29,629 bases of DNA from Myxococcota bacterium (GCA_039208735.1 JBCCQY010000110.1:1-29629), one strand, 5' to 3'. Positions 1-13,722 are shown, counted from the first letter of the stretch. Translations and numbers: made by a program. The notes: a model not told the origin generated them from the sequence alone.

Positions 1-34
1 AGTGATTCGAACACTCGACCACTTGCTCCCAAAG
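1..34 (-). repeat. Distal att site: duplicated 3' part of tRNA-Pro (anticodon loop to T-arm), truncated by the window start
   Basis: gtgattcgaacactcgaccacttgctcccaaag (2-34) vs gtgattcgaacacacgaccacctgctcccaaag (10958-10990). Similarity ends just past the anticodon loop, as is typical for tRNA-targeting tyrosine integrases. Confidence 0.88.
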
Positions 35-93
35 GGGGTGCTGCCGGCCACGATCACGGTGGTGGCGTAAGGTTGAAGGCGGGGGATCTCGCA

Positions 94-306: not shown

Positions 307-2814
307 TCAGACGTCGATCTCAACAGCCACGCCAACCTTGCTCGCGACCTCGCTGTAGAAGTCCACCTCGAGAACCTGACCCTCAACTTCGGCCTCAACG
401 TCGTCTGTCTCGATGGACACGATCAGCGCGTACCTTGCCTTGCGCTCGACTTGACCGAGGTGCTTCCGTTCCCGCCACCACCCGATGACCGGGAATACTG
501 CAATTCTCCCACGGCCTGTCAGTTTTGACGCCGGGCCCTCCCATACGTCCGAATGGACACTCCCACGATCACGGTTGTCCGTCCCAATGACCCACTCAGA
601 GGCGTCCGAGGGGAAGCTCTTACCCTTGTCTCCCTCCGACCGAGCGGCGAGGGAGATTCGCTTCTCGAACGCAGCGTCGGTCTCGTCCGCGGTCTTCACG
701 GCGAAGCGGAGGTTGTGCGATGGGTAACGGTAACGGCTTCCCCATCCGCGATCCCCTGGTCCTGGCTCAACGAAGTAGGACAGGGTGACGCGGAGTCGCA
801 CCGTTGTCGTTCCCAGCGCTTCGAGCGCGGACTCTGGCCATGGGAGGTCGTGAAGTCGGAGCTCATTGCTCTTTGCCGTGCTGCCCTCGAGCTTGAAAGG
901 CTGGATGGTGTCTTCGAGAACCAAGGTCAACGCGTGGCCGGCCGAGTGCAGGGCACGGCGCAGATCTGGTCGGCCATGCCCGAACGTGCGGAGGAGGTCA
1001 TTGACCTTCTGTCGTCGGGTTCCCTCGTTGCAGCGTTCCCGCATCTCGGTCGTCCAACGACAGGAATGAATAAGCAAAGCGCGGACTGTCTCGGGCCAGA
1101 GGCTTGTGTACTCCTGTCGGATGCGGGTAGCATACCTGCCAGCCAGAACTGCGGCTGGGCTCGTTCCGCCTGCGGATGTGAGGAGTGGCCACCCGAGATC
1201 GGGGATGTTCGTGGTCAGGAGCTCGAGCTCTTCGACTCGTTCGGGCTGGCCGGCAGGCGCCGCTGCCATGTTCCCTCCCTCCATCACCATGTCAGGCTTG
1301 TTTGGCCAAGCCCACTCCCACAGCCTCCCGACGGTGGTGTGAGGCGACATGTCGCCGGCCGACGCAATTGGCGACCAGCCTGGCCTCACGGTCTGATCGA
1401 GGTCAACCCGATCGGTGATCGCACCGACACATACCGCGTTCCACGCTTGGGCAGGGTCTTGGACGCCGTCAGTGAGGTTGTCTTCGGGGTACGCGTAGGT
1501 GGGTTGGTGATCGTGGTTCCCAGCGGAGACAAAGACGAGGCGGCCCGGGTCATCGTCAACTCCGGCGCAGATCTGGTCGAGGGCACTGGACCATGCCGTA
1601 GGCCGTCCCTCGTTGCTCCTTACACCCGTGATGGTGACCGTGAACACACGCGTGCGGAACGGAGCTTCGCGCTCGGGGTGAAGGGGTGCTTCGCGAAGGA
1701 TGGCGCCCCGATGCGTCAAGCTGGTGTGCGCGGTGCCGACATCGATAATCTTCACCGACTCCAAAGGGAACGGTAGGTGAAAAGGCTCGCTCGACGCCAG
1801 CGCATCTCCGAGGTGCTCTCCGAAACTCGCTACACCGGCCATCCATGTTCCATGACCCATTCTGTCATCTGGCGTCCAGGTCAGAACCGCGTGGCACTCA
1901 GCACTCGAAATGGAAGGTCGCAAGAGTGGATGGGCCCATGCCACCCCGGAATCGAAAATGCAAAGAGCCACGTCGTCGCGTTCGGGTGGGACCAAGCGGC
2001 CTGCCAATTCGTGTGTCCACTCAGCCTGTTCGGGGATGCGCATCTTGTGGAAGTCGGAGTCGAACTGTGGCGCGGCACGTAGTTCGGCAATGCTGTCCAG
2101 CAAATCCACGGCTCGTTCCACCGCAGCTATGGGGGCACGGGCGACTACAACCTCCCGATCTGGGAACAAGAGCGTGAGCTTACTCACTTGAATGCCGAGG
2201 ATGGCGGCATTTGTCTTGAATCGTTCGACATCTCCGCCGCGAAGCCAGACCTCCCAATCGTAGCTGGCGGTAGGGTCAGCCGGGAAGGCGTAGTATGGGT
2301 CGGTCCAGATGTCCTGGCTCCGAGACGGCCGGAACTGCTCGACGCTCTGGATGGTACTGACCCCCCGTGGCTCACCCGACTTCGAGTTCTTGGTTGGGTC
2401 GAGGTAGTTCTCTACCCTTCTCACCGGCTTGCTCATTCCGCCTTCAGGGATGAACAAGGTGGCCACACCTTTCCCGCCACCTGTAGCTCGCACGGCCAAC
2501 AGCTCGACCTGATTTCTACCACGTCGATCTTCCAGCTTCTCAGGATCGAAATCGCGGTTCAGGTCCACTTCGGCTGTCACAATCGACCCAGACGCCGACA
2601 CCCCAGCCGATGCACGATCACCAGATAGCGTCTCCTCTCGTTTCTCCAACGCGTCAAGTTGCGCAAGGAGATTCCCACCGTGGATTGCTCGGTCACGGCT
2701 CGGGTACGCCGCCGGTGGTGGCGTATCGGGACCACCGGAAGAGACATACACGTACTCGCGCGATGTAGCGGTGCCCCTCGGCTGAAGGTGGGGCTTCCAA
2801 TCGGGGTTCGCCAC
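307..2814 (-). CDS. ietS: S8 family (subtilase) serine peptidase, IetS-like
   Basis: 835 aa. Catalytic motifs FDSGV (Asp), HGTWMAG (His), SAGN (oxyanion Asn) and GTSPAA (Ser). Conserved C-terminal LRVTLSYFVEPGPG/RGSVHSD/PVIGWW. No signal peptide; lies directly downstream of an AAA ATPase. Confidence 0.88.
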   Translation of the reverse strand: MANPDWKPHLQPRGTATSREYVYVSSGGPDTPPPAAYPSRDRAIHGGNLLAQLDALEKREETLSGDRASAGVSASGSIVTAEVDLNRDFDPEKLEDRRGRNQVELLAVRATGGGKGVATLFIPEGGMSKPVRRVENYLDPTKNSKSGEPRGVSTIQSVEQFRPSRSQDIWTDPYYAFPADPTASYDWEVWLRGGDVERFKTNAAILGIQVSKLTLLFPDREVVVARAPIAAVERAVDLLDSIAELRAAPQFDSDFHKMRIPEQAEWTHELAGRLVPPERDDVALCIFDSGVAWAHPLLRPSISSAECHAVLTWTPDDRMGHGTWMAGVASFGEHLGDALASSEPFHLPFPLESVKIIDVGTAHTSLTHRGAILREAPLHPEREAPFRTRVFTVTITGVRSNEGRPTAWSSALDQICAGVDDDPGRLVFVSAGNHDHQPTYAYPEDNLTDGVQDPAQAWNAVCVGAITDRVDLDQTVRPGWSPIASAGDMSPHTTVGRLWEWAWPNKPDMVMEGGNMAAAPAGQPERVEELELLTTNIPDLGWPLLTSAGGTSPAAVLAGRYATRIRQEYTSLWPETVRALLIHSCRWTTEMRERCNEGTRRQKVNDLLRTFGHGRPDLRRALHSAGHALTLVLEDTIQPFKLEGSTAKSNELRLHDLPWPESALEALGTTTVRLRVTLSYFVEPGPGDRGWGSRYRYPSHNLRFAVKTADETDAAFEKRISLAARSEGDKGKSFPSDASEWVIGTDNRDRGSVHSDVWEGPASKLTGRGRIAVFPVIGWWRERKHLGQVERKARYALIVSIETDDVEAEVEGQVLEVDFYSEVASKVGVAVEIDV

Positions 2815-2823
2815 GGCCTGCCT

Positions 2824-3819
2824 CTACGGCTGGGACGTTGTTTCGTAGCCGGACCGCTTCATGCGAATCGCTGCCACAAGGTGAGCGGTATCCAGCTCGA
2901 GGCGGCCTTCCAGGATCATGTCTTTCGCCGCCTCCTCACATGCTCCAAGGATGTCGGCCTGTGCGATCCCGGCAGCTTCACTAGCCGCCTGTGCGAAGTC
3001 CACAGATCCCGTGGGGAAGTTCGCGAGCGAGACTCTCAGCATCTCCAACGTGAGGCCCTCATCCGGGCGCTCGTACCGAAGTACGCTGTCGAATCGGCGA
3101 AACAGGGCCCGGTCGAGCAGTTCGACGTGGTTCGTGGCAGCGACGATCAGGCTGTCTGAATCGTCCTCCTCGATGAACTGGAGAAAGCTGTTGAGTACAC
3201 GGCGGATCTCACCGACGTCGTTCGGTGTTGCGCGCTGTGCTCCGAGCGCATCGAACTCGTCGAAGAGATAGACGCCGCGAGTCTCGATCATGGCATTGAA
3301 TACGAGCCGGAGCTTCGCCGCCGTTTCCCCAAGAAACCTGGTAATCAGAGTGTCGAGACGGACGGCGAGGAGTGGGAGCCGAAGCTCGCTTGCGATGGCA
3401 TTGGCGGTCATCGTCTTTCCGGTACCCGGAGGGCCGACGAGCAGGAGCTTGCGGCGGGGGCGAAGGCCATGCTCACGGAGGTCGTGGGCTCGCCGGTGCT
3501 CATTGAGTAGGCGATCAAGCGACACCCGCAGCGGCTCGGCGAGGACGAGGTCTTGGAGCCGGACCTCTGGGTAGGTGCAGCGGAGTAGCTCGGCGAGGTC
3601 GCCCTTTGGCTGTCCGAAGGGGACGGCCCCAGGAACCCTGCCAATGGCAGTCCTGCGCCTTCTCGCATCATCCACGAGATCGCGTAGCTCGCGGGCCACC
3701 TCGGCGTGCCCTTTGCGGGCCTCGGCCGCTGCGACCTGGAGTACCACACGGAAGAACTGGGCATCGTCCTGGTCGTTGAACGACCGTACGAGGGCCGCAA
3801 TCTGCTTCGCCGTAGCCAT
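2824..3819 (-). CDS. ietA: AAA+ ATPase, IetA-like
   Basis: Walker A GPPGTGKT, Walker B YLFDEFD, sensor ATN and LDRALFRRFD. The N-terminus MATAKQIAALVRS is typical of IetA-type ATPases. ATG 3819 is preferred over TTG 3831; the stop is 9 bp from the S8 gene start. Confidence 0.88.
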   Translation of the reverse strand: MATAKQIAALVRSFNDQDDAQFFRVVLQVAAAEARKGHAEVARELRDLVDDARRRRTAIGRVPGAVPFGQPKGDLAELLRCTYPEVRLQDLVLAEPLRVSLDRLLNEHRRAHDLREHGLRPRRKLLLVGPPGTGKTMTANAIASELRLPLLAVRLDTLITRFLGETAAKLRLVFNAMIETRGVYLFDEFDALGAQRATPNDVGEIRRVLNSFLQFIEEDDSDSLIVAATNHVELLDRALFRRFDSVLRYERPDEGLTLEMLRVSLANFPTGSVDFAQAASEAAGIAQADILGACEEAAKDMILEGRLELDTAHLVAAIRMKRSGYETTSQP

Positions 3820-4145
3820 GGTGTTGCTCAAAGGGGGGTGCGGGCGTCATGTACAGGTGCTTCGATTCGGGGCCAGTTAATCCGACAGCGTCCCGGTGGC
3901 GCGGCCTTGGGAAAATGGCTGGACCAGTTCGGCTTCCACGAGGTGGGGGCGAACGGCCTGGCTTTCCCACCTTGATCGGTTGGAGCTTTGCCGCAGCCTC
4001 CGTGTTGGCTCTGACGAACTTGGGCCGCGTCGCCTCATCGACGGTTGACATGTCGGTGATCCCGCGTGGTTGGTAGAATACTATGTGAGCCAGCGGACAG
4101 TTTTTGGTAGCCAACCCGACCGGACCAGCTGCGGCCGAGCCCTGG

Positions 4146-4370
4146 CTATCGGATGGTCCCACCGTCAACTGCTGTCTTTGTCCCCCCGCCGTGCTGCGTG
4201 AACCGTGGGCGGATGAAGACTTTCTGCGGTCGCAGCGTGTACCGCTGGTCGGTGGCGCGTTGCGACCAGACGAGCGCCTCGCCCGGTTGGAGCGAGGTCA
4301 CTGCACCATCCGGAACATCATCGAGGGCTACGATGGCGCTGCGGAGATGCTTCAGCCACTGTGGCGAGGT
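4146..4370 (-). pseudogene. 3' remnant (~74 codons) of a large HerA/FtsK-like ATP-binding protein gene, resembling the C-terminus of MADS Mad8
   Basis: Reads TSPQWLKHLRSAIVALD...LQPGEALVWSQRATD...RPRFTQHGGGTKTAV with no start codon or RBS of its own; the upstream part of this frame is shadow sequence of the helicase. Family assignment is from memory and not verified. Confidence 0.55.
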
Positions 4371-4927
4371 ACCACTCGGAACGGCACTAGCACGCCGTCG
4401 CGGACGGCATCGTGGCTCGTGTAGGCGTAGACGACCCTGTCCCAGGTCCGGAGCCCCCGATCGTCGGCGCGGAATGGGGTCGCGGTGAAACCCACCGCAA
4501 CGTCGGCGCGGAGCTTGTCGCTCACGAGCCGCGTCGAGGGACCTTCGATGCGGTGCGCTTCGTCGGCGATCCAGCACGCCCACGATGCTCGCTCCTCGAG
4601 GAGCCTGGGCAGGCTCGGAACGCAGGCGACGACAACGTCCTTGTCGACCTCCCACGCGTGCTGGTACGCCCTGCCCACCCGCAGCGGGCCGCAGCTTCGA
4701 GTCACCGTCGCGGCGAGCTGGTCGACGAGCGCCTGCGTCGGCGTGGTGATCAGGATGGGCCCCCGCCTCGCCGCTGCCGCGAGCGCGCCGATCAGTACCG
4801 ACTTGCCCGACCCGGTGCAGGCCTGCACGAGCGGCCGCCGGAGCCCCGCACGCAGCGACCCGATCACCGTCCGGAAGGCATCCTCTTGCCACCGACGAGG
4901 TGCGCGTCCCGCCCAGACGTCAGCCAC
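4352..4927 (-). pseudogene. SF2 DEAD/DEAH-box (ResIII-like) helicase, N-terminal domain only, truncated
   Basis: Q motif (PRRWQEDA), Walker A CTGSGKS, Ia TPTQAL, II DEAH and III TATP. Ends at 191 aa just after the interdomain linker (GVLVPFRVV) with no motifs IV-VI. GTG start overlaps the upstream stop. Confidence 0.8.
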
Positions 4928-7676
4928 AGGCCACCCCCGGCGACGTCGGCAACTCCTCGCTCGCGGCGGGCTCGTGCCAGCTCGTGGCGACGCGCACCTC
5001 CACGGCCTGGTCCGCGGGGACGTCGTAGTGCCGCCGAGACTCGGTGCCTGGCACGACGACCGCCTCGATGGCGTCGCGGAGAGCGAGGTGCATGTGCTGC
5101 CGCAGGCGCGAAGCCGTGGCCTCGACCTCTTCGGCCGGAGACTCGACGATCACCTCGTCGTGCACGACCAGCACCACTCGGTCCGTCGACGACAACAGCA
5201 CTCGTCGCAGCGCATCGGCCTCGGTTGCCTGCCACACGTGCGCCTTGGCCCGCCGGATCTGGCTGGCTCGATCCCCTCCCACCGGAATCGAGCGCGCTCG
5301 CGCCTGCAACCCGGGCCAGACCATCGGGGGCGGATCACGCTCCAGTCCCTCCATGTAGGCGCGGAGTCTCGGGTAGCTTCGCAGCCAGACCTCCCGTCGA
5401 AGCATGAGCATCCGGCCGTCGACGGGGGCGCCGTACTGCTGCGCCACTTCGGCGAAGGTCGTGCCTCCGCCGCCGTTGAGGTAGGCGAGGACGCACACCT
5501 TCGCAGCGCGGCGTCCTCGTTCCGGGTCGAGCTCGGGGAACCAGATCGCGGCAGCGTGGGCGTACAGGTCGCCGGTGGCGAGGTCCCCCATCGCAGCATG
5601 ATCGTCGGACAGCGCAGCGGCGATCTGCACGAACGCGGCTCGCCAGTCGCCGATCACCAGTCGATGCCCCTCTGGCGCGGCGAACCCCGAACGAACCGCG
5701 AAGGCCTTGGTGACGCCCTGGAGGTTCGGCGCCGAGGACTGCAGACGTCCGAGCTCTTGCTGACCCCATCGGCAGCGTACGCGCCCCGTCTGACGGGCCT
5801 GGAGGATCGGGGAGGCGTGGTCGGCTGTTCCATCGAGCAGCCCACGAAGGGCGTCCCTGCGCCGTCCGTCCGCCTCCGACCCGGCGCTTCGGAGCGCCTC
5901 GAGCCCCGCCTCGACCTTGTCCCGGAGCACCTTCGCATCGGCGGGCATGCCTCGCGCCGCCATGGCGACAACTGCGTCGTAGGCAGGGTCTGTAGGTGCG
6001 AGGCTCACCGACTGCGCGGCGATGGCTTCGAGGGACGGAGCAGGGGGCGGCGATGGGGACGCGGGAGGCGATGGAGGGTCCATCGTCGGTCCGTCGACCC
6101 GGACCGGCCGGTAGCGGACGCCCATGTTGGTGGCCTTCTTCTGCAGTTGCCAGGCTCCGTCGAGCAGCGGGCGCGTACGCTGGGACAGGCCGGTCAGCCA
6201 CTTGCCGAGGCTGCTCTGCTGGGCGGCGGCCGTCCTCGACTGGTCGACCAAGCCGGCGAGGTCCCACTTGCCGAAGGTGCGCGCGAGCTCGAGGATGTGC
6301 TGCGGGGACAGCCACGCGGGCTCGCCCATAGCGTCACGCTCCCACACGGTCCTCTCGTAGCCCTGCTCGTCCTCGAACTGACCGGCGAACAGCTCGACGA
6401 GGTCCTGGGTGGCAGCGTCGACGGGCCTCGCTGACGGCGCCAGCCATGCCTCGCCCCACTCGGGCTTCGCGAGGCTCACGGGCCCGCCGACCTGCCGCGA
6501 CCACCACTCGTAGCTGTCGAGCGATCGCGCAGCATCGGGCCGTCCCGCCTTGATCCAGTGGTCCACCAGCCGGAGCAGGGCCGACACCACCCGAGGGCGG
6601 TGGGCCGACACCCACTGCAAGAGGTCGGGCGTTCGGAATCGCCGGTTTGGCCGCTGGCGGAGCCGGATCAGGTTGATGCGTCGCGCCGCCTCGCCATCGG
6701 TGCGGATGCGGATGCCGTTGCCGAGCCACATCGTGTGGGTCGGGTTCCCGCCGTCCATCGTGCTCGAGCCGACGGTGCGGGAGGGCAGGTCACCGCGGGC
6801 CGTCATGATCTGGTTGAACCGCGCCGAGTGGATCGAGGAGCCGGTCGCGATGTTGTCGAAGAAGATGACCGGGGGCAGGGCGGTCTGTTTGAGGATCGAG
6901 CCGAGCGTGTAGCCCTGTTCGGGGCCGTCCTCGAAGGGAACGCTGCCGATCGGCTGTTCGGAGGCGACGCGGCAGAGGAGCTCCGAGACGTAGCTTTTCC
7001 CCGCGTTCTCCTCGGGCGCGACGATCAGGTGGAAGGGGCTCGTCTGCCCTCGCGTGTCGGTCACGATCTGGACGAGGGCGGCCACGAACGCGGTCGCCGA
7101 CGACGCCGAGGCGAAGTCGAAGTCCATGAGCCGGTCCAGGATGTCCCACATCTCGGCATCCGAGACGCGGTCCGGGCTCGCGAGCTCGTCGTGCGACCAC
7201 TGCAGCCAGCAGCCGGACGCCTCGTCGTAGCCGGGCTGGTTCACGAGTCGCCCGTCCTCGTCGAACCAGGGGGCGTACCGAACGTGCTCGAGGCGTGGCC
7301 AGGCCTCCGACAGCCAGACCGCCTTCGCGTCCCTCGCCGGCAGCTCGCGCACCTCGTCGCGCCGGATGCCCTCGATGACACACACCTCGGGCAACAGGGC
7401 CTGGAACTGCTCGGCATCGAAGGGCCGCAGGCTTCCGGTGGCGGGGTCGAGGCGGTGCAGGCCCTTCGTCTGCCGCCACCGCCAGAAGCGGTCGGGCTGC
7501 TTGAGACGGACCGACTCGACCGCCTTGAGCCTCCGTTGGTGGATCAGGAGGCCGCGCTCGATCACGTCTGGCTCTGCGGACCATGACGGGTGGTCCTCGG
7601 CGCGCCACGGAGTTGGCGCGCTGCTTATTGGTGCGTGTTGAGTGGCCCTCGCCGCGCCGACGCTAGAGCTCTGCAC
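4920..7676 (-). CDS. SF3-like replicative helicase fused to a C-terminal family A DNA polymerase domain
   Basis: N-half has Walker A APEENAGKS, Walker B IFFDN, WLGNG, AARR and a probable winged helix (SLGKWL). After a Pro-rich linker come PolA motifs GRLQSSAPNLQ, motif A GDWRAAF, motif B RRAAKVCVLAYLNG and motif C VHDE. Start is uncertain (ORF open to 7745; GTG 7676 chosen). Confidence 0.82.
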   Translation of the reverse strand: MQSSSVGAARATQHAPISSAPTPWRAEDHPSWSAEPDVIERGLLIHQRRLKAVESVRLKQPDRFWRWRQTKGLHRLDPATGSLRPFDAEQFQALLPEVCVIEGIRRDEVRELPARDAKAVWLSEAWPRLEHVRYAPWFDEDGRLVNQPGYDEASGCWLQWSHDELASPDRVSDAEMWDILDRLMDFDFASASSATAFVAALVQIVTDTRGQTSPFHLIVAPEENAGKSYVSELLCRVASEQPIGSVPFEDGPEQGYTLGSILKQTALPPVIFFDNIATGSSIHSARFNQIMTARGDLPSRTVGSSTMDGGNPTHTMWLGNGIRIRTDGEAARRINLIRLRQRPNRRFRTPDLLQWVSAHRPRVVSALLRLVDHWIKAGRPDAARSLDSYEWWSRQVGGPVSLAKPEWGEAWLAPSARPVDAATQDLVELFAGQFEDEQGYERTVWERDAMGEPAWLSPQHILELARTFGKWDLAGLVDQSRTAAAQQSSLGKWLTGLSQRTRPLLDGAWQLQKKATNMGVRYRPVRVDGPTMDPPSPPASPSPPPAPSLEAIAAQSVSLAPTDPAYDAVVAMAARGMPADAKVLRDKVEAGLEALRSAGSEADGRRRDALRGLLDGTADHASPILQARQTGRVRCRWGQQELGRLQSSAPNLQGVTKAFAVRSGFAAPEGHRLVIGDWRAAFVQIAAALSDDHAAMGDLATGDLYAHAAAIWFPELDPERGRRAAKVCVLAYLNGGGGTTFAEVAQQYGAPVDGRMLMLRREVWLRSYPRLRAYMEGLERDPPPMVWPGLQARARSIPVGGDRASQIRRAKAHVWQATEADALRRVLLSSTDRVVLVVHDEVIVESPAEEVEATASRLRQHMHLALRDAIEAVVVPGTESRRHYDVPADQAVEVRVATSWHEPAASEELPTSPGVACG

Positions 7677-7953
7677 AAGGCACCGAGCGCCGCCCTCGAC
7701 GGCGATAGGTCTTCGTCCGCTGCCAGGCGCCTCGCAGACCCTCACTCTCCGCGCCGGTCAGGTCCAGGGCCTCGATCAGGGCATGGAGCTGGATCCAGTC
7801 GGGCGTGCTGAGCTCGTTCTCGTACTCGGAGATCCGCGACTGGTGCACTGCACAGGAGCTGTCGGCCTGCTTCGCCCGTTCCGCCAGCTGGCGCTGCGAC
7901 CAGCACCGTGTATTCCTGAGACGGCGGAGTTCGCGCCCGAATGTCGGGTCCAT
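7663..7953 (-). CDS. Cro-like XRE helix-turn-helix regulator
   Basis: MDPTFGRELRRLRNTRCWSQRQLAE...QSRISEYEN, 96 aa. Strong GGAGG RBS before ATG 7953; first gene of the replication operon. Confidence 0.82.
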   Translation of the reverse strand: MDPTFGRELRRLRNTRCWSQRQLAERAKQADSSCAVHQSRISEYENELSTPDWIQLHALIEALDLTGAESEGLRGAWQRTKTYRRRGRRSVPCAEL

Positions 7954-8017
7954 GGACACCTCCCCATACGACATTCGGATAGTTGATGATGGCTGATGTT
8001 GCAACCGACAATCGGAT
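7935..8017. promoter_or_regulatory. Three operator-like palindromes (consensus ATCCGA-N3-TCGGAT) at the divergent switch
   Basis: GCCCGAATGTCGGGT 7935-7949, ATACGACATTCGGAT 7966-7980 and AACCGACAATCGGAT 8003-8017, at or between the starts of two divergent XRE genes. Confidence 0.6.
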
Positions 8018-8051
8018 TGATGGCACAGATCTGGCTTGGGAACCAGATAAG

Positions 8052-8678
8052 ATGGCGATGCAGATCAAGCGGCTCCGGGAGAGCCGCGAGCTCTCCCAGC
8101 TGGAGCTCGCGTCGGCGATCGGTCGCACTCAGCGCTGGATCTCCGATCGGGAGCGAGGCTCCGCGCGGGTTACCCTCGACGATCTGCACCTCATCGCCGA
8201 GGCGCTGCAGGTCGAGCTGGTGTTGGTGATCGGCGACCATCGGTTCGTCGGCGGCGTCCGCTCTCGGGCGACGACCTACGAGATGCCGCCGCAGTGGGAG
8301 CTACTGCACATGGGAACGAACAAGCAGATCGCCCAGCGTCTGAAGGCCATTCGAGAAGAGCTCGGACTCAGTCAGGGCGACGTGACCGAGCGGCTCGAAC
8401 AGCCCCACACCTGGCTGTCGGTTCGGGAACGGGGAGGGGTGAAGCTGTCGCTCGACGACGTGTCTGAGATCGCAGGAGCCATGGGGCTCCACGCCGAGCT
8501 GGTCATAGCGAGGGACCGCGAGCTCATCGAGCTCCTCTCCACGTCGCCGGCGGCTCACCTCGATCTGGTCGGTACCCTTCTCCGAGTGCTGCCCACGATG
8601 GAGGAACAGTCCCGGAAGATGCTCGTCGGCATGATCGAGGTCGCGGCCGAGCAGATGAGCGAGAAGCCTCGCGCCTGA
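8052..8678 (+). CDS. CI-like repressor with two tandem XRE HTH domains
   Basis: QIKRLRESRELSQLELASAIGRTQRWISDRERG and QRLKAIREELGLSQGDVTERLEQPHTWLSVRERG are homologous HTH repeats. Divergent from the Cro-like gene; start may be 7986, 7989 or 8052. Confidence 0.8.
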   Translation: MAMQIKRLRESRELSQLELASAIGRTQRWISDRERGSARVTLDDLHLIAEALQVELVLVIGDHRFVGGVRSRATTYEMPPQWELLHMGTNKQIAQRLKAIREELGLSQGDVTERLEQPHTWLSVRERGGVKLSLDDVSEIAGAMGLHAELVIARDRELIELLSTSPAAHLDLVGTLLRVLPTMEEQSRKMLVGMIEVAAEQMSEKPRA

Positions 8679-8838
8679 TGGCGCCTCACGCAGTGGTCGA
8701 GGTCCTGTAGGGCGAAGGTGGCGTCCGCACGAACCCGCCACTGCAGCGCCTCGACCGAGGAGCTCGTGATGGCATCGGGTCTACTATACGGACTACGGGC
8801 GGGCTCGCGAGTCTTCGTTCGCACTCTTGTTGCGATGC

Positions 8839-8869
8839 ATCTGCTTTTCGGATTATCCCTTTGTTGGAT
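8839..8869. promoter_or_regulatory. Second pair of operator-like sites in an AT-rich putative promoter
   Basis: ATCTGCTTTTCGGAT 8839-8853 and ATCCCTTTGTTGGAT 8855-8869 each match 12/15 of ATCCGAWTGTCGGAT. Confidence 0.45.
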
Positions 8870-8905
8870 TTGATGCGCAGCGGCATCACGACATCGAGGT
8901 GCGAC

Positions 8906-9088
8906 ATGGCGCTCCGGATGTGGAGTTGGGGGGTGGGCCGAGCGCGTCTGCGCAGCGTGGCTCTGGTCAATGCCTCGAGTCCGCGAAGCGCCACCTTGGC
9001 GAGACGGCGAGCCTGGGAGGGGGAGCCTGCGCTTCTCGTCGCCAACCAGCGCAAGCAGAACGTCTTCACGCTGGTCTCCGCCCCATGA
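8906..9088 (+). CDS. Small hypothetical protein (60 aa)
   Basis: GAGGT RBS 5 nt before ATG 8906; its stop overlaps the next start (ATGA 9085-9088). No recognisable domain. Confidence 0.35.
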   Translation: MALRMWSWGVGRARLRSVALVNASSPRSATLARRRAWEGEPALLVANQRKQNVFTLVSAP

Positions 9089-9639
9089 TCCTCCGCTCCG
9101 TCAGTCGCCAACCGACACCATCCGACAGTGAGCTGGCAGATCATCCGCGGCCGGCGAGTGACGCTCGATGCATGCCGCTCGCCAAGCCCGCCCCGATGCT
9201 TCGCCGCTCCCCCGAACCCTCACCCTCTGTGGATGAGACGCAATCGCCCACCTCGCTCGAAGCCCGACGCCTTCCCGTCACCTCGCTCGCGGGGCCTGCG
9301 GAGTGGCGTTCCATGGCCAGCCGCATCCGACTCACCGTCGCCCATGTCGACGACGCGGGACCCGTGATCGTCGATGGGCCGATAGGCCCGGAGTGCCTCG
9401 TCGTCCTCTGGCCCTCCGTCGATGGCCGGCTGATCGAGCGCGCCGTGCTCGACGGGGAGCACGAGCTCCGTCGTTGGCGGCTCTCGCCCGCCGACGTCGA
9501 GCGCCTGGTCGAACTGGTCTCCGACTGGGACCTCGGTCGCCGCGATCTCATCGTGTCGGCCGCGGCCATCCGACCCTGTCGAGACACCCTGCGCGGCTCA
9601 CGGGTCTGGCCCGGTCATCGCCTGGCCAAGGCGGCTTAG
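9085..9639 (+). CDS. Hypothetical protein of the element
   Basis: Open frame converging on the integrase stop (4-bp overlap). ATG 9085 is coupled to the upstream ORF; an alternative ATG at 9313 (GGAG RBS) starts the more globular-looking last 108 aa. Confidence 0.45.
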   Translation: MILRSVSRQPTPSDSELADHPRPASDARCMPLAKPAPMLRRSPEPSPSVDETQSPTSLEARRLPVTSLAGPAEWRSMASRIRLTVAHVDDAGPVIVDGPIGPECLVVLWPSVDGRLIERAVLDGEHELRRWRLSPADVERLVELVSDWDLGRRDLIVSAAAIRPCRDTLRGSRVWPGHRLAKAA

Positions 9640-10838
9640 AAGTCGAACGCATCCAGCCGAGCGGCGAGATCCTGCGGTCGCGGCCGACAGTAGACCCGAC
9701 GAAACATCGCCGCATCCGTCCACCGACCCGTTCGCACTGCCGTGTCCTCGTCCACCCCCATCGCCCAGGCGATCGTCGCGAACGTGGCTCGCAGCAGGTA
9801 GGGCGTGACCGGACGCTCGATTCCCGCGCGCTGGGCGGCCATCGCGAGCGCTCGCTTGTACCCGCCGCGGCTCGCGTAGGGCGTCCCCTTCTTCCGCGAC
9901 GGGAAGACCACGCCATCCGGAGTCGGTCTCGGAACGGCGACCTCTCGCCACGCGAGGAGCGCCTTCGTCGCCAGCGGCGTCAGCCCGATCACGGCGGCCG
10001 ACGCCGTCGTCTTGGTGCCCCGGACGGACAAAACCCTCCGCTCGAGGTCGACGTCGGACCACCGCATCCGGACCAGCTCGCCAGGCCGCAGTCCCACCCC
10101 GGCCTGCACGCCCCACATCGCCCGGAACTTCGGCTCGCTCGCGTCCATCAACGCCTTCAGCTCGTCGAGGTCGAGGGGATCCACCTGCGGCTTCGCCCGC
10201 GTCGTCGCCCCCTTGATTCGGATGGCGGCCAGATCGGGCAGCGCGTCGATGTGCCGCTTCCGGTACGCATACTTGAGCAGCGCCCGAATCGCGTTGCGGT
10301 GGTGCACCTTGGTCTGCCCGCTGACCGGCTCGCCCTCGTTCGCGAGCGAGCAGTTGCGGCCCCCACGAATCACCCGCAGCCCGTCGAGGTAGTCCATCAC
10401 GTCCCGAGGATCGAGATCGCGCACGCGCACGCTGCCCAGCACCGGCAGGATTCGTGCCCAGTACTCCCGCTCCGTTGGCCAACTCTTGACCTGGTGCGCT
10501 CGCCACACCTGGTAGCTGCTGTTCTCGAAGTACGACCGCAGCGACATCCGGCCCCAGTCTGGCCCGAACTCGTCGAGCGCTGCCTTCGCCACGACCGGGT
10601 CCCCGACCACGTGCTCGACGAACCCCTCGTGATCGCGCTCGTACCACGACCACAGCAGCGACAGCCGGTCCGCGTCGTGCTCCGACTGCACGTAGTCCCG
10701 CGCCGTGTCCGCCTCTTCCCGCGTCACGTACCCGAGCCCGAGCTGCTTCCGGTTGTCCCGCGACCCGTAACGGAGTCGGAAGTAGGTACCGCCCGGCCGT
10801 TTCGAGGCGTCGACTCGCCATTGTCCGCGTATTGCCAA
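9636..10838 (-). CDS. int: Tyrosine recombinase / integrase
   Basis: GLRPGELVRMRWSDVD (Arg-I), GTKT (Lys), TPYLLRATFAT (His/Arg box variant) and GRWT...RRVY (Tyr). TTG start at 10838 has GGAGG 5 nt upstream; 400 aa; adjacent to the tRNA 3' end. Confidence 0.9.
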   Translation of the reverse strand: MAIRGQWRVDASKRPGGTYFRLRYGSRDNRKQLGLGYVTREEADTARDYVQSEHDADRLSLLWSWYERDHEGFVEHVVGDPVVAKAALDEFGPDWGRMSLRSYFENSSYQVWRAHQVKSWPTEREYWARILPVLGSVRVRDLDPRDVMDYLDGLRVIRGGRNCSLANEGEPVSGQTKVHHRNAIRALLKYAYRKRHIDALPDLAAIRIKGATTRAKPQVDPLDLDELKALMDASEPKFRAMWGVQAGVGLRPGELVRMRWSDVDLERRVLSVRGTKTTASAAVIGLTPLATKALLAWREVAVPRPTPDGVVFPSRKKGTPYASRGGYKRALAMAAQRAGIERPVTPYLLRATFATIAWAMGVDEDTAVRTGRWTDAAMFRRVYCRPRPQDLAARLDAFDF

Positions 10839-10884
10839 CCGGACCTCCCCGGAGCTCCGTCGAGCTCCCGAGAAGCCACTATCT

Positions 10885-10903
10885 TGTGCCCCCCGGGGGC
10901 ACA
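10885..10903. repeat. Putative arm-type sites, inverted pair TGTGCCCCC-C-GGGGGCACA
   Basis: Same 9-mer as at 104-122, lying between the tRNA 3' end and the int start. Confidence 0.65.
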
Positions 10904-10944
10904 TTGCCAGCGAATGTCCGCCGGTCGATTGTTGGGTTCGAAAG

Positions 10945-11021
<77 letters not shown>

Positions 11022-12558: not shown

Positions 12559-13722
12559 TCAGTGACGGCGGCGCGTGCTGACCAAGCCGAGGAGGAGCAA
12601 CGCGCCCAGGCCAGCCCCTGCAGGTGATGCCGATGAGCATCCGCAACCCGTCTCGCTGTCGATGGGTTCGGGCTCGGGCTCGGGCTCTTCCGTCGGATCG
12701 GGCTTCTTCTTTTCGTCAGGGTCGCAGATGTCGGGGTCTTTCGTGCCTGCGCAGACCCCGGCGTCGCAAACGTCGTTGACCGTGCACTTGTCACCGTCGT
12801 CGCACATCCCGCCCTCATTGGCAGCCATCGGTTCGCACATGCCGGTTGCGACGCTGTAGTTGCCCATGTTGCAGGCATCGTACACCGCGGTGCAGTCCAC
12901 CCCGAAGTTTGCGATCTGGTCCCACTGTTCCTGGGTCATGCACTGGAACACGTTGGGCGGCAGCGCCACGAGTTCGGCGGCCTTGGCTACCGCTTCGGGG
13001 TTGGTCGGCACCCCGCTCACGAGGTTCATGATGGCGCGGGTTTCTCCAGCGCCCACCGTGAACTCGTACGACCATTCCGGATTGTCGTCACCGTCGGTGA
13101 ACGTCACCACGTTGGCCGAGATCGCGCCGTCACGGTTGCCGAGCACATGGGCGAGCCTTGGATCGTCGTAGTCTCCGCCCGTGGCCACCCAGTGGTCGGT
13201 GGTGTCGCCCTTCGTATCACCGCTTTCCGAACCGAGAATTTCCGTCGAACCATCGGAACCGAGGTTGTTCACGACCTCCATCGTGACCGTGGCGTCTTTC
13301 GTACCGTTGTTGGTCACAAACGTGATCCACCGCGCGAACGCGTCGTTGTCAGGTACGTACACCCGACGGGACACCGTCAGATCGCCAATCGTCTGCGGGT
13401 TGAGCACCACGTCCCGGCCCTTGCACTCCAGGGTGGCGTCGCCATTGTTCGTGTAGGTCGTGCCGTCGATGATCACGCCGTTGTAGCCGTCGAATGCGTC
13501 CCCAAGGGTGCTCGACGTTGTCGCTCCACTCGTGGTCGTCGTTGGAACGGCCTGGGTGTAGCTCGCTTCCGACGCGGCGCCCGAGGCGGACGACGAGGAG
13601 TAGGTGACATCATCATTGATGTAGTAGGTGAGTCCTGAACCATCGACGAGGTCAACGGTTGCAAAGGCCGGTGTGGTCAACCCCAACACCAAGCCAAACG
13701 GGATGAGCTGCCGAAGCCGCAT
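12559..13722 (-). CDS. Exported protein with a MYXO-CTERM sorting signal
   Basis: Signal peptide, Cys-rich CDDGDKCTVNDVCDAGVC repeat, PE linker, and C-terminal GCGCSS + hydrophobic helix + RRRH; GGAGG RBS. Confidence 0.85.
   Translation of the reverse strand: MRLRQLIPFGLVLGLTTPAFATVDLVDGSGLTYYINDDVTYSSSSASGAASEASYTQAVPTTTTSGATTSSTLGDAFDGYNGVIIDGTTYTNNGDATLECKGRDVVLNPQTIGDLTVSRRVYVPDNDAFARWITFVTNNGTKDATVTMEVVNNLGSDGSTEILGSESGDTKGDTTDHWVATGGDYDDPRLAHVLGNRDGAISANVVTFTDGDDNPEWSYEFTVGAGETRAIMNLVSGVPTNPEAVAKAAELVALPPNVFQCMTQEQWDQIANFGVDCTAVYDACNMGNYSVATGMCEPMAANEGGMCDDGDKCTVNDVCDAGVCAGTKDPDICDPDEKKKPDPTEEPEPEPEPIDSETGCGCSSASPAGAGLGALLLLGLVSTRRRH

Follow-up and report, generated by a model that had tools for sequence, protein, structure and literature searches.

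The window analysed here, a 29,629-nucleotide stretch of a Myxococcota bacterium genome (GCA_039208735.1 JBCCQY010000110.1:1-29629), carries at one end an element of ~10.96 kb, bounded by a tRNA-Pro gene and a 90% copy of the 3′ half of that gene, with tRNA attachment (att) sites, an integrase, divergent regulators, a replication gene (rep) and defence cargo, i.e. traits of satellites like P4 and the phage-inducible chromosomal islands (PICI) (Table 1). The rep open reading frame (ORF; 4920-7745, minus strand) runs for 941 codons without an internal stop and encodes a D5-like superfamily 3 (SF3) helicase with a winged helix-turn-helix (wHTH) domain, fused to a family A DNA polymerase. The start of rep is uncertain: a previous, sequence-only reading of this DNA placed it at 7676, where a GTG is indeed found, whereas the recorded gene starts at 7565 and encodes 881 amino acids (aa). 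Residue numbers of the rep protein refer below to this 881-aa form, and those of key polymerase positions to Escherichia coli Pol I. A second assembly of the probable source run (labelled marine metagenome) showed 0 differences across 3581-11001; because the same sample was used, this match only argues against an assembly slip.

The domain composition recognized in the sequence-only reading, an SF3-like helicase with wHTH, a proline-rich linker and an exonuclease-less family A polymerase, is borne out by Pfam, fold matches and the predicted structure alike. The C-terminal third of the protein is a family A polymerase (Pfam DNA_pol_A, E = 2.6e-15); the profile of its family matches Klenow with E = 5e-31, and Klenow is also its best fold match (Z = 26.0, root-mean-square deviation 3.1, 315 residues aligned), compared to Z = 14.2-15.2 only for T7 and mitochondrial RNA polymerases. 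Residues ~1-490 fold like D5-like SF3 helicases, the best matches being vaccinia D5 (Z = 13.0), SaPI5 PriRep (Z = 12.2), NrS-1 and African swine fever virus (overall Z = 10.4-13.0; the top six are D5-type), and the characteristic AAA+ fold, Walker A and B motifs, motif C, arginine finger and C-terminal wHTH are present, motif roles having been assigned by eye from known SF3 motifs. In the predicted structure (mean predicted local distance difference test score, pLDDT, 84.5), the wHTH closes the helicase part and is followed by a disordered linker (residues 493-515), which in homologues ranges from almost nil to ~150 aa. No exonuclease family was matched in the Pfam scan of the rep protein, and the model has no space for one between linker and polymerase. 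Residues 3-467 find their counterpart in the helicase portions of primase-helicases of the Prim-Pol, DUF3854, RepB and TOPRIM kinds, so that no primase is concealed at the N-terminus, in line with the sequence-only reading; at most 60 additional codons precede the 881-aa start, and an N-terminal DnaG or archaeo-eukaryotic primase (AEP) domain is absent.

A computed alignment to E. coli PolA reproduces the assignments previously made by eye against Klenow: D705, R754, K758 and H881-D882-E883 are retained, as are R668, Q849 and D854, and E710 is replaced with phenylalanine (codon TTC), F762 with leucine and Y766 with asparagine. A further change, A852 to glutamate, had escaped the earlier reading. 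The shortened thumb was likewise recovered, with 55 residues from the conserved glycine to GRV compared to 109 in E. coli Pol I. We compared 38 family polymerases (a set that includes the near-copies P0029/L055/L175, L056/L168 and P0013/P0161, two members, L169 and L173, counted on weak profile scores and neighbourhood, and one, L010, that looks dead) with 51 control PolAs hand-picked from the loci of this analysis. In the family, position 710 is His in 25, Gln in 10, Phe in 2, Leu in 1 and Glu in none, position 766 is Asn in 26, Tyr in 7 and another residue in 5, and position 852 is Glu in 38/38; among the controls, 49/51 have Glu710 and 0/51 have Glu852. The catalytic residues are conserved in the family (D705 and K758 in 37/38; D882 in 37/38, one sequence ending at a contig edge; R668 in 36/38). 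Judged by these counts, His is the family residue at the gate and Phe is this copy's own change.

E710 and Y766 are described as a hydrogen-bonded pair that is present throughout family A (PMC3715850). Because this universal pair is jointly replaced while both catalytic Asp residues are kept, the change is a real rebuild of the pocket. Ribonucleotide use does not follow from the loss of E710, because Phe at Asp+5 is the closed gate of the Y-family polymerase DinB, and putting Phe into DinB2 blocks the use of ribonucleoside triphosphates (PMC4176160). His serves as the gate in PolD, an unrelated fold (PMC7708050).

Several other PolAs bear on these positions. A viral control PolA (L075, IMG/VR contig, 8864-10975), which branches apart from the helicase-fusion polymerase family in the tree, combines His710 and Asp852 with the canonical F762 and Y766, a single hint that positions 710 and 852 may change together. 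The host genome has three further PolA genes; a full-length host paralogue (L003, G000:C85:16407-17528) with Gly710, Asn766 and Glu849 branches with cellular-type PolAs and is possibly inactive or repurposed. Four genomes from this phylum encode accessory PolAs (L060:9608-11188, L061:3260-4828, L064:8625-10286, L065:9566-11428) that have a short thumb (65-66 aa), a canonical motif A and Phe at 766; L060 has no Pfam exonuclease match, and its neighbouring genes look chromosomal. The short thumb, noted in the sequence-only reading, was accordingly rejected as a mark of a primase.

A full HMMER search listed 150 proteins, 149 of them non-self. Helicase and family polymerase are fused in 18/149, at 26-37% identity, which indicates a family, not decay; in support of the sequence-only reading, homologues keep both the fusion and the non-canonical motifs A and B. 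The same helicase is joined to a canonical PolA in 7/149 hits, and 66/149 are polymerase-less helicases with a long N-terminal extension. The family polymerase is N-terminal to the same helicase in 2/149 hits and occurs without that helicase in 5/149 (four N-terminal to DUF5906, AAA_25 or VapE helicases, and one fragment). Thus, in six relatives the family domain occupies the primase slot, upstream of the same helicase (2), DUF5906 (1), AAA_25 (2) or VapE (1). In all 18 fusions with the family polymerase, only 0-71 residues lie ahead of the helicase, whereas 5/7 fusions with canonical PolA have at least 150, with Prim-Pol or DUF3854 in 4 of those; among the 66 long-extension relatives, Pfam recognizes a primase catalytic domain in at least 34 and a primase accessory domain in a further 7. 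When 401 genomes of the phylum and 182 genomes of the class were searched, further members emerged as fusions (L055, L056, L168, L175), as separate genes for helicase and polymerase (L059, L169, L173, L176), as contig-edge pieces (L010, L058) and as stand-alone forms (L057, L063). In most family loci with enough DNA, the neighbours include an HTH pair together with either an integrase or a serine recombinase, and ParA is frequently encoded as well.

A word-seeded protein search had no family member among its 9 matches, another that covered only proteins of at least 1788 aa gave none and is uninformative, none of the 64 loci of a viral scan exceeded 166 bits with the family profile (the window and fusion members score ~290-330), and tblastn against INPHARED phages and PLSDB plasmids gave only 24-32% identity among the matches listed; a Burkholderia match proved on checking to be an ordinary Pol I. 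P0043, a candidate stand-alone polymerase, was rejected as a contig fragment of a 907-aa fusion. A stepwise Glu to Gln to His path was not supported, the Gln forms not being clearly basal in the tree. The related elements L057:2367-8954 and L063:517-7683 each encode, besides a family polymerase and a RecA-type helicase, a shared protein of ~530-600 aa; degenerate AEP-like segments in L057 are an impression by eye only and matched neither the library nor the primase probe.

TV-Pols were proposed in 2008 as predicted primase-polymerases and near-ancestral forms, with no linked nuclease and with phage Ma-LMM01 among the listed carriers (Iyer et al. 2008, PMC2579912). The 2008 text leaves the ORF unnamed; ORF178 of Ma-LMM01 is a canonical PolA adjoining an exonuclease, and ORF30, which adjoins two transposase genes and has the motifs D-x4-H, K-x3-L-x3-NG, Q-x2-E and HDG, is probably the TV-Pol. 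Nine stand-ins whose TV-Pol identity is inferred from context (ORF30, six relatives and two Polaromonas plasmid proteins, one of them near a recombinase gene) have His710 in 9/9, Glu852 in 9/9, Leu762 in 8/9 and Asn766 in 7/9. On Polaromonas plasmid pW9NP1 (7.2 kb; L180:37-2497), a probable TV-Pol lies directly upstream of repA. The HH score of the profile of these stand-ins is 55.8 with the family and 19.5 with canonical PolA, and falls to 33.9 and 16.7, respectively, when the four signature columns are masked. Without the signature columns, the probable TV-Pols group with the family in a tree of 88 rows (LG+G4; Shimodaira-Hasegawa-like approximate likelihood ratio test, SH-aLRT, 97) and in a mixture-model tree of 45 rows (SH-aLRT 93), both with a long-branch warning.

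Given that the probable TV-Pols have the His/Glu signature, and that the same domain fills the primase slot in six relatives, the rep polymerase reads as a domain of TV-Pol type whose order relative to the D5-like helicase of this small integrative element is reversed, a link stronger than the sequence-only reading held. Like TV-Pols, it is a minimal exonuclease-less PolA, partnered with a D5-like helicase in an integrase-bearing mobile element, with no nuclease domain fused or linked and a predicted primase-polymerase role, and it has the TV-Pol core features (coiled-coil thumb, hairpin Arg, two palm Asp and RxxxK). It differs in lying C-terminal to the helicase, as in the 18 homologues, whereas the TV-Pol order is seen in the six relatives; domain order is a feature of the architecture, not of the polymerase domain. 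The gate residue differs as well, being Phe in this copy and His in the probable TV-Pols. Because the family profile scores 373 against canonical PolA and the probable TV-Pols only ~19, the family sits between the two, and it may link Pol I-type enzymes to TV-Pols. A more far-reaching proposal, tentative and in our estimate doubtful, is that the family is a Pol I-like stem, that TV-Pols are reduced PolA derivatives and not near-ancestral, and that the His710/Asn766/Glu852 pocket would permit accessory-free de novo synthesis by a one-chain helicase-primase-polymerase.

From the observed folds, architecture, conservation and context, we infer the activities of the rep protein, which we hold, with moderate confidence, to be a self-priming helicase-primase-polymerase that probably makes DNA primers. 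It would serve as the one-chain replicase of the element: after integrase-driven excision, the wHTH would bind the origin and the SF3 ring unwind it, by analogy with D5, P4 alpha and SaPI Rep, and the tethered PolA would start chains de novo on the unwound strand and extend them without proofreading. In the pocket, rebuilt in the TV-Pol manner from the E710-Y766 pair to His (here Phe) and Asn, the new Glu852 may assume the role of the lost E710 carboxylate; the helicase tether would give the template grip that MP gives CCPol, and DNA or mixed primers would be more likely than RNA. As stated previously, no primase is visible in the element: none was detected by Pfam library scans and the primase probe, either there or in 8 fusion or split-gene loci, and nothing primase-sized lies ahead of the helicase. 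The argument from displacement, i.e. from a domain in the primase slot, is the one used for TV-Pols, and with CCPol-MP a PolA has been shown to prime, with dNTPs (PMC7581432).

Other observations weigh against self-priming. CCPol alone is unable to prime, and it keeps E710 and F762 (PMC7581432); E710Q and Y766A impair Klenow (PMC3715850). Of the 8 loci without a primase match, four are short or cut, and some ORFs have no family assignment. A separate primase in relatives, which the sequence-only reading named as a refuting finding, is seen in part in one distant member, L063, where a His/Asn/Glu-type polymerase and a Zn-finger-TOPRIM-AAA_25 (RecA-type helicase) protein share one integrase-led gene run, the Glu and DxD of the TOPRIM looking intact. 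The primase probe missed this TOPRIM and has limited reach. The missing primase is weak evidence because 51/149 hits are short stand-alone helicases and because the loci of three close relatives of the helicase (L170-L172) contain no polymerase over 16-20 kb, nor was a primase detected there. In the best trees, the N-terminal forms are nested within the C-terminal fusions, and the alternative with them basal was not rejected (approximately unbiased test, p-AU = 0.276).

Conceivably, the protein is instead a primer-dependent, error-prone, helicase-coupled polymerase, a pared-down replicase of the Pas55 type primed by host DnaG, transcripts or recombination ends, which we consider rather unlikely. 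Helicase-exonuclease-PolA fusions of the same order do exist (the 7/149 hits above), Pas55 is the top BFVD match (E = 3e-29), L063 has its own primase, helicase-only elements occur, and the SaPI primase is dispensable in vivo (PMC7581432); however, this explanation does not account for the absence of a primase in 18/18 fusions when most canonical fusions keep one, nor for the primase-slot position on four helicase types and the pocket rebuild in 38/38. Less probable still is that the family is active and this copy impaired, the His-to-Phe change having abolished a contact that the enzyme requires and the element being at an early stage of decay. The rarity of Phe, the truncated adjoining SF2 gene and the divergence of this copy from other members near motif A and in the thumb would fit this reading, but the ORF is open throughout, GC content at third codon positions is 0.80-0.95 along its length, all catalytic residues are kept, the integrase, regulators and att sites look intact, and TTC is two bases away from the usual His codons. 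We regard as very improbable a role other than DNA replication, be it the synthesis of short RNA, synthesis without a template, or the clamping of DNA ends without catalysis: the otherwise universal E710-Y766 pair is lost (PMC3715850), and T7 RNA polymerase has an acid (D787) where position 852 aligns, and its thumb helix is shorter (PMC7581432), but the fold is far nearer Klenow than the RNA polymerases, and the protein retains a bulky residue at the gate along with both catalytic Asp.

Self-priming by the rep protein would have a counterpart in CCPol-MP-Cch2 of SCCmec and the PolA-SSB primases, which also pair a priming PolA with a D5-type helicase in an integrative element, without proofreading and with a short thumb (PMC7581432, PMC10061031); CCPol differs in keeping E710 and F762 where rep has Phe and Leu, in retaining part of the exonuclease domain (PMC7581432), and in needing a separate OB-fold protein, whereas rep is one chain with a short linker and no such partner gene. 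The helicase-before-PolA order, which the sequence-only reading noted as reversed relative to TV-Pol, is already on record for Pas55 (Actinoplanes phage phiAsp2), a protein with the same helicase type that, as described, differs in having a DnaG primase (PMC4889955). P0059, P0097, P0112 and P0152 likewise have the same helicase type and order, but begin with a primase and also possess a 3'-5' exonuclease, a thumb of full length and a canonical motif A. SaPI5 PriRep, P4 alpha, poxvirus D5 and NrS-1 resemble rep in SF3 fold, C-terminal winged helix and satellite-like gene layout, and differ in their N-terminal AEP or TOPRIM primase. Polymerase-first PolA-helicase fusions are common in virophages and polinton-like viruses (PMC3671162; bioRxiv 10.64898/2026.06.19.733378, 10.64898/2026.10.13.758929, 10.1101/2024.03.18.585575). 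The group is not described in the parts covered of the 2023 PolA reclassification (PMC10201439), and no primase-less helicase-TV-Pol fusion or His/Glu signature was found in the literature, with most subscription journals outside coverage; the signature may already show in the 2008 TV-Pol alignment figure or supplement. A D5-like helicase followed by a polymerase of TV-Pol type, as found in these small integrative elements, is a conserved architecture that is apparently undescribed.

By the time of the 2020 CCPol paper, only CCPol had been assayed among TV-Pol members (PMC7581432), and no TV-Pol assay was found in the literature after 2020. The family described here is near enough to Klenow for every residue to be mapped and offers natural His, Gln and Phe gate variants as well as both domain orders, which makes testable how a PolA starts chains, what takes the place of the E710-Y766 pair, and which way evolution ran between TV-Pols and Pol I. 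If true, a self-priming helicase-polymerase chain could serve primer-free amplification.

Table 1 Features of the integrated element and of the rep gene (window coordinates).
Feature	Position	Strand	Basis or remark
tRNA-Pro(TGG), integration site	10945..11021	-	att copy 10958-10997
Second att copy	2..41	.	90% identical to tRNA 3′ half; contig end cuts it
Tyrosine integrase, start uncertain	9636..10904	-	Pfam Phage_integrase, E 1.3e-18
Divergent double-HTH repressor-like gene	7983..8678	+	Pfam HTH_31 and HTH_3, two stretches
Small XRE/HTH regulator directly upstream of rep	7663..8004	-	Pfam HTH_31, E 2.9e-11
rep: D5-like SF3 helicase-wHTH, linker, TV-Pol-type family A polymerase	4920..7745	-	longest ORF; true start probably 7676 or 7565
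Helicase module: N-terminal collar, AAA+, winged helix	6096..7565	-	fold matches and conserved motifs
Walker A	6996-7019	-	conserved among homologues
Walker B Asp	6855-6857	-	conserved among homologues
Motif C Asn	6717-6719	-	conserved among homologues
Arg-Arg finger	6678-6683	-	conserved among homologues
Winged helix of helicase module	6096-6407	-	fold
Pro-rich linker	6006..6083	-	pLDDT <50
Polymerase domain	4977..6005	-	Pfam, profile, alignment, fold
R668	5745-5747	-	alignment to E. coli PolA
D705	5646-5648	-	alignment to E. coli PolA
Gate Phe (position 710)	5631-5633	-	alignment to E. coli PolA
R754 / K758	5511-5513 / 5499-5501	-	alignment to E. coli PolA
L762	5487-5489	-	alignment to E. 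coli PolA
N766	5475-5477	-	alignment to E. coli PolA
New Glu (position 852)	5220-5222	-	alignment to E. coli PolA
HDE	5154-5162	-	alignment to E. coli PolA
Truncated superfamily 2 (SF2; ResIII-like) helicase gene, first RecA domain only, overlaps rep stop	4352..4927	-	family scans
IetA-like AAA+ ATPase, cargo	2824..3831	-	PADLOC IetA, E 1.4e-70; under NCBIfam cut-off
IetS-like S8 peptidase, cargo	307..2814	-	PADLOC IetS, E 2.5e-28; Pfam S8

In the rest of the element, within 4146-4927, the DNA past the first RecA domain of the SF2 gene reads, in another frame, like the C-terminal remnant of a different gene, which suggests a recombination junction ahead of the defence cargo; a second copy of the SF2 gene (86% aa identity) lies on contig C192. 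The IetA/IetS-like pair (307-3831), the satellite cargo, has a GC content below that of the rep region. Neither iterons nor a sigma-70 promoter were found in the non-coding stretches checked, and candidate ORFs in 8680-9640 had no family match in scans made without satellite-specific models for packaging or capsid-hijacking genes. In depth, the contigs of the probable source run were flat, and they lacked an attP joint, which is uninformative either way. Outside the element, positions 12559-13722 encode a secreted-type protein with a C-terminal tail consisting of Cys-Gly-Cys, a hydrophobic stretch and an Arg-rich end, which may resemble myxobacterial sorting signals.

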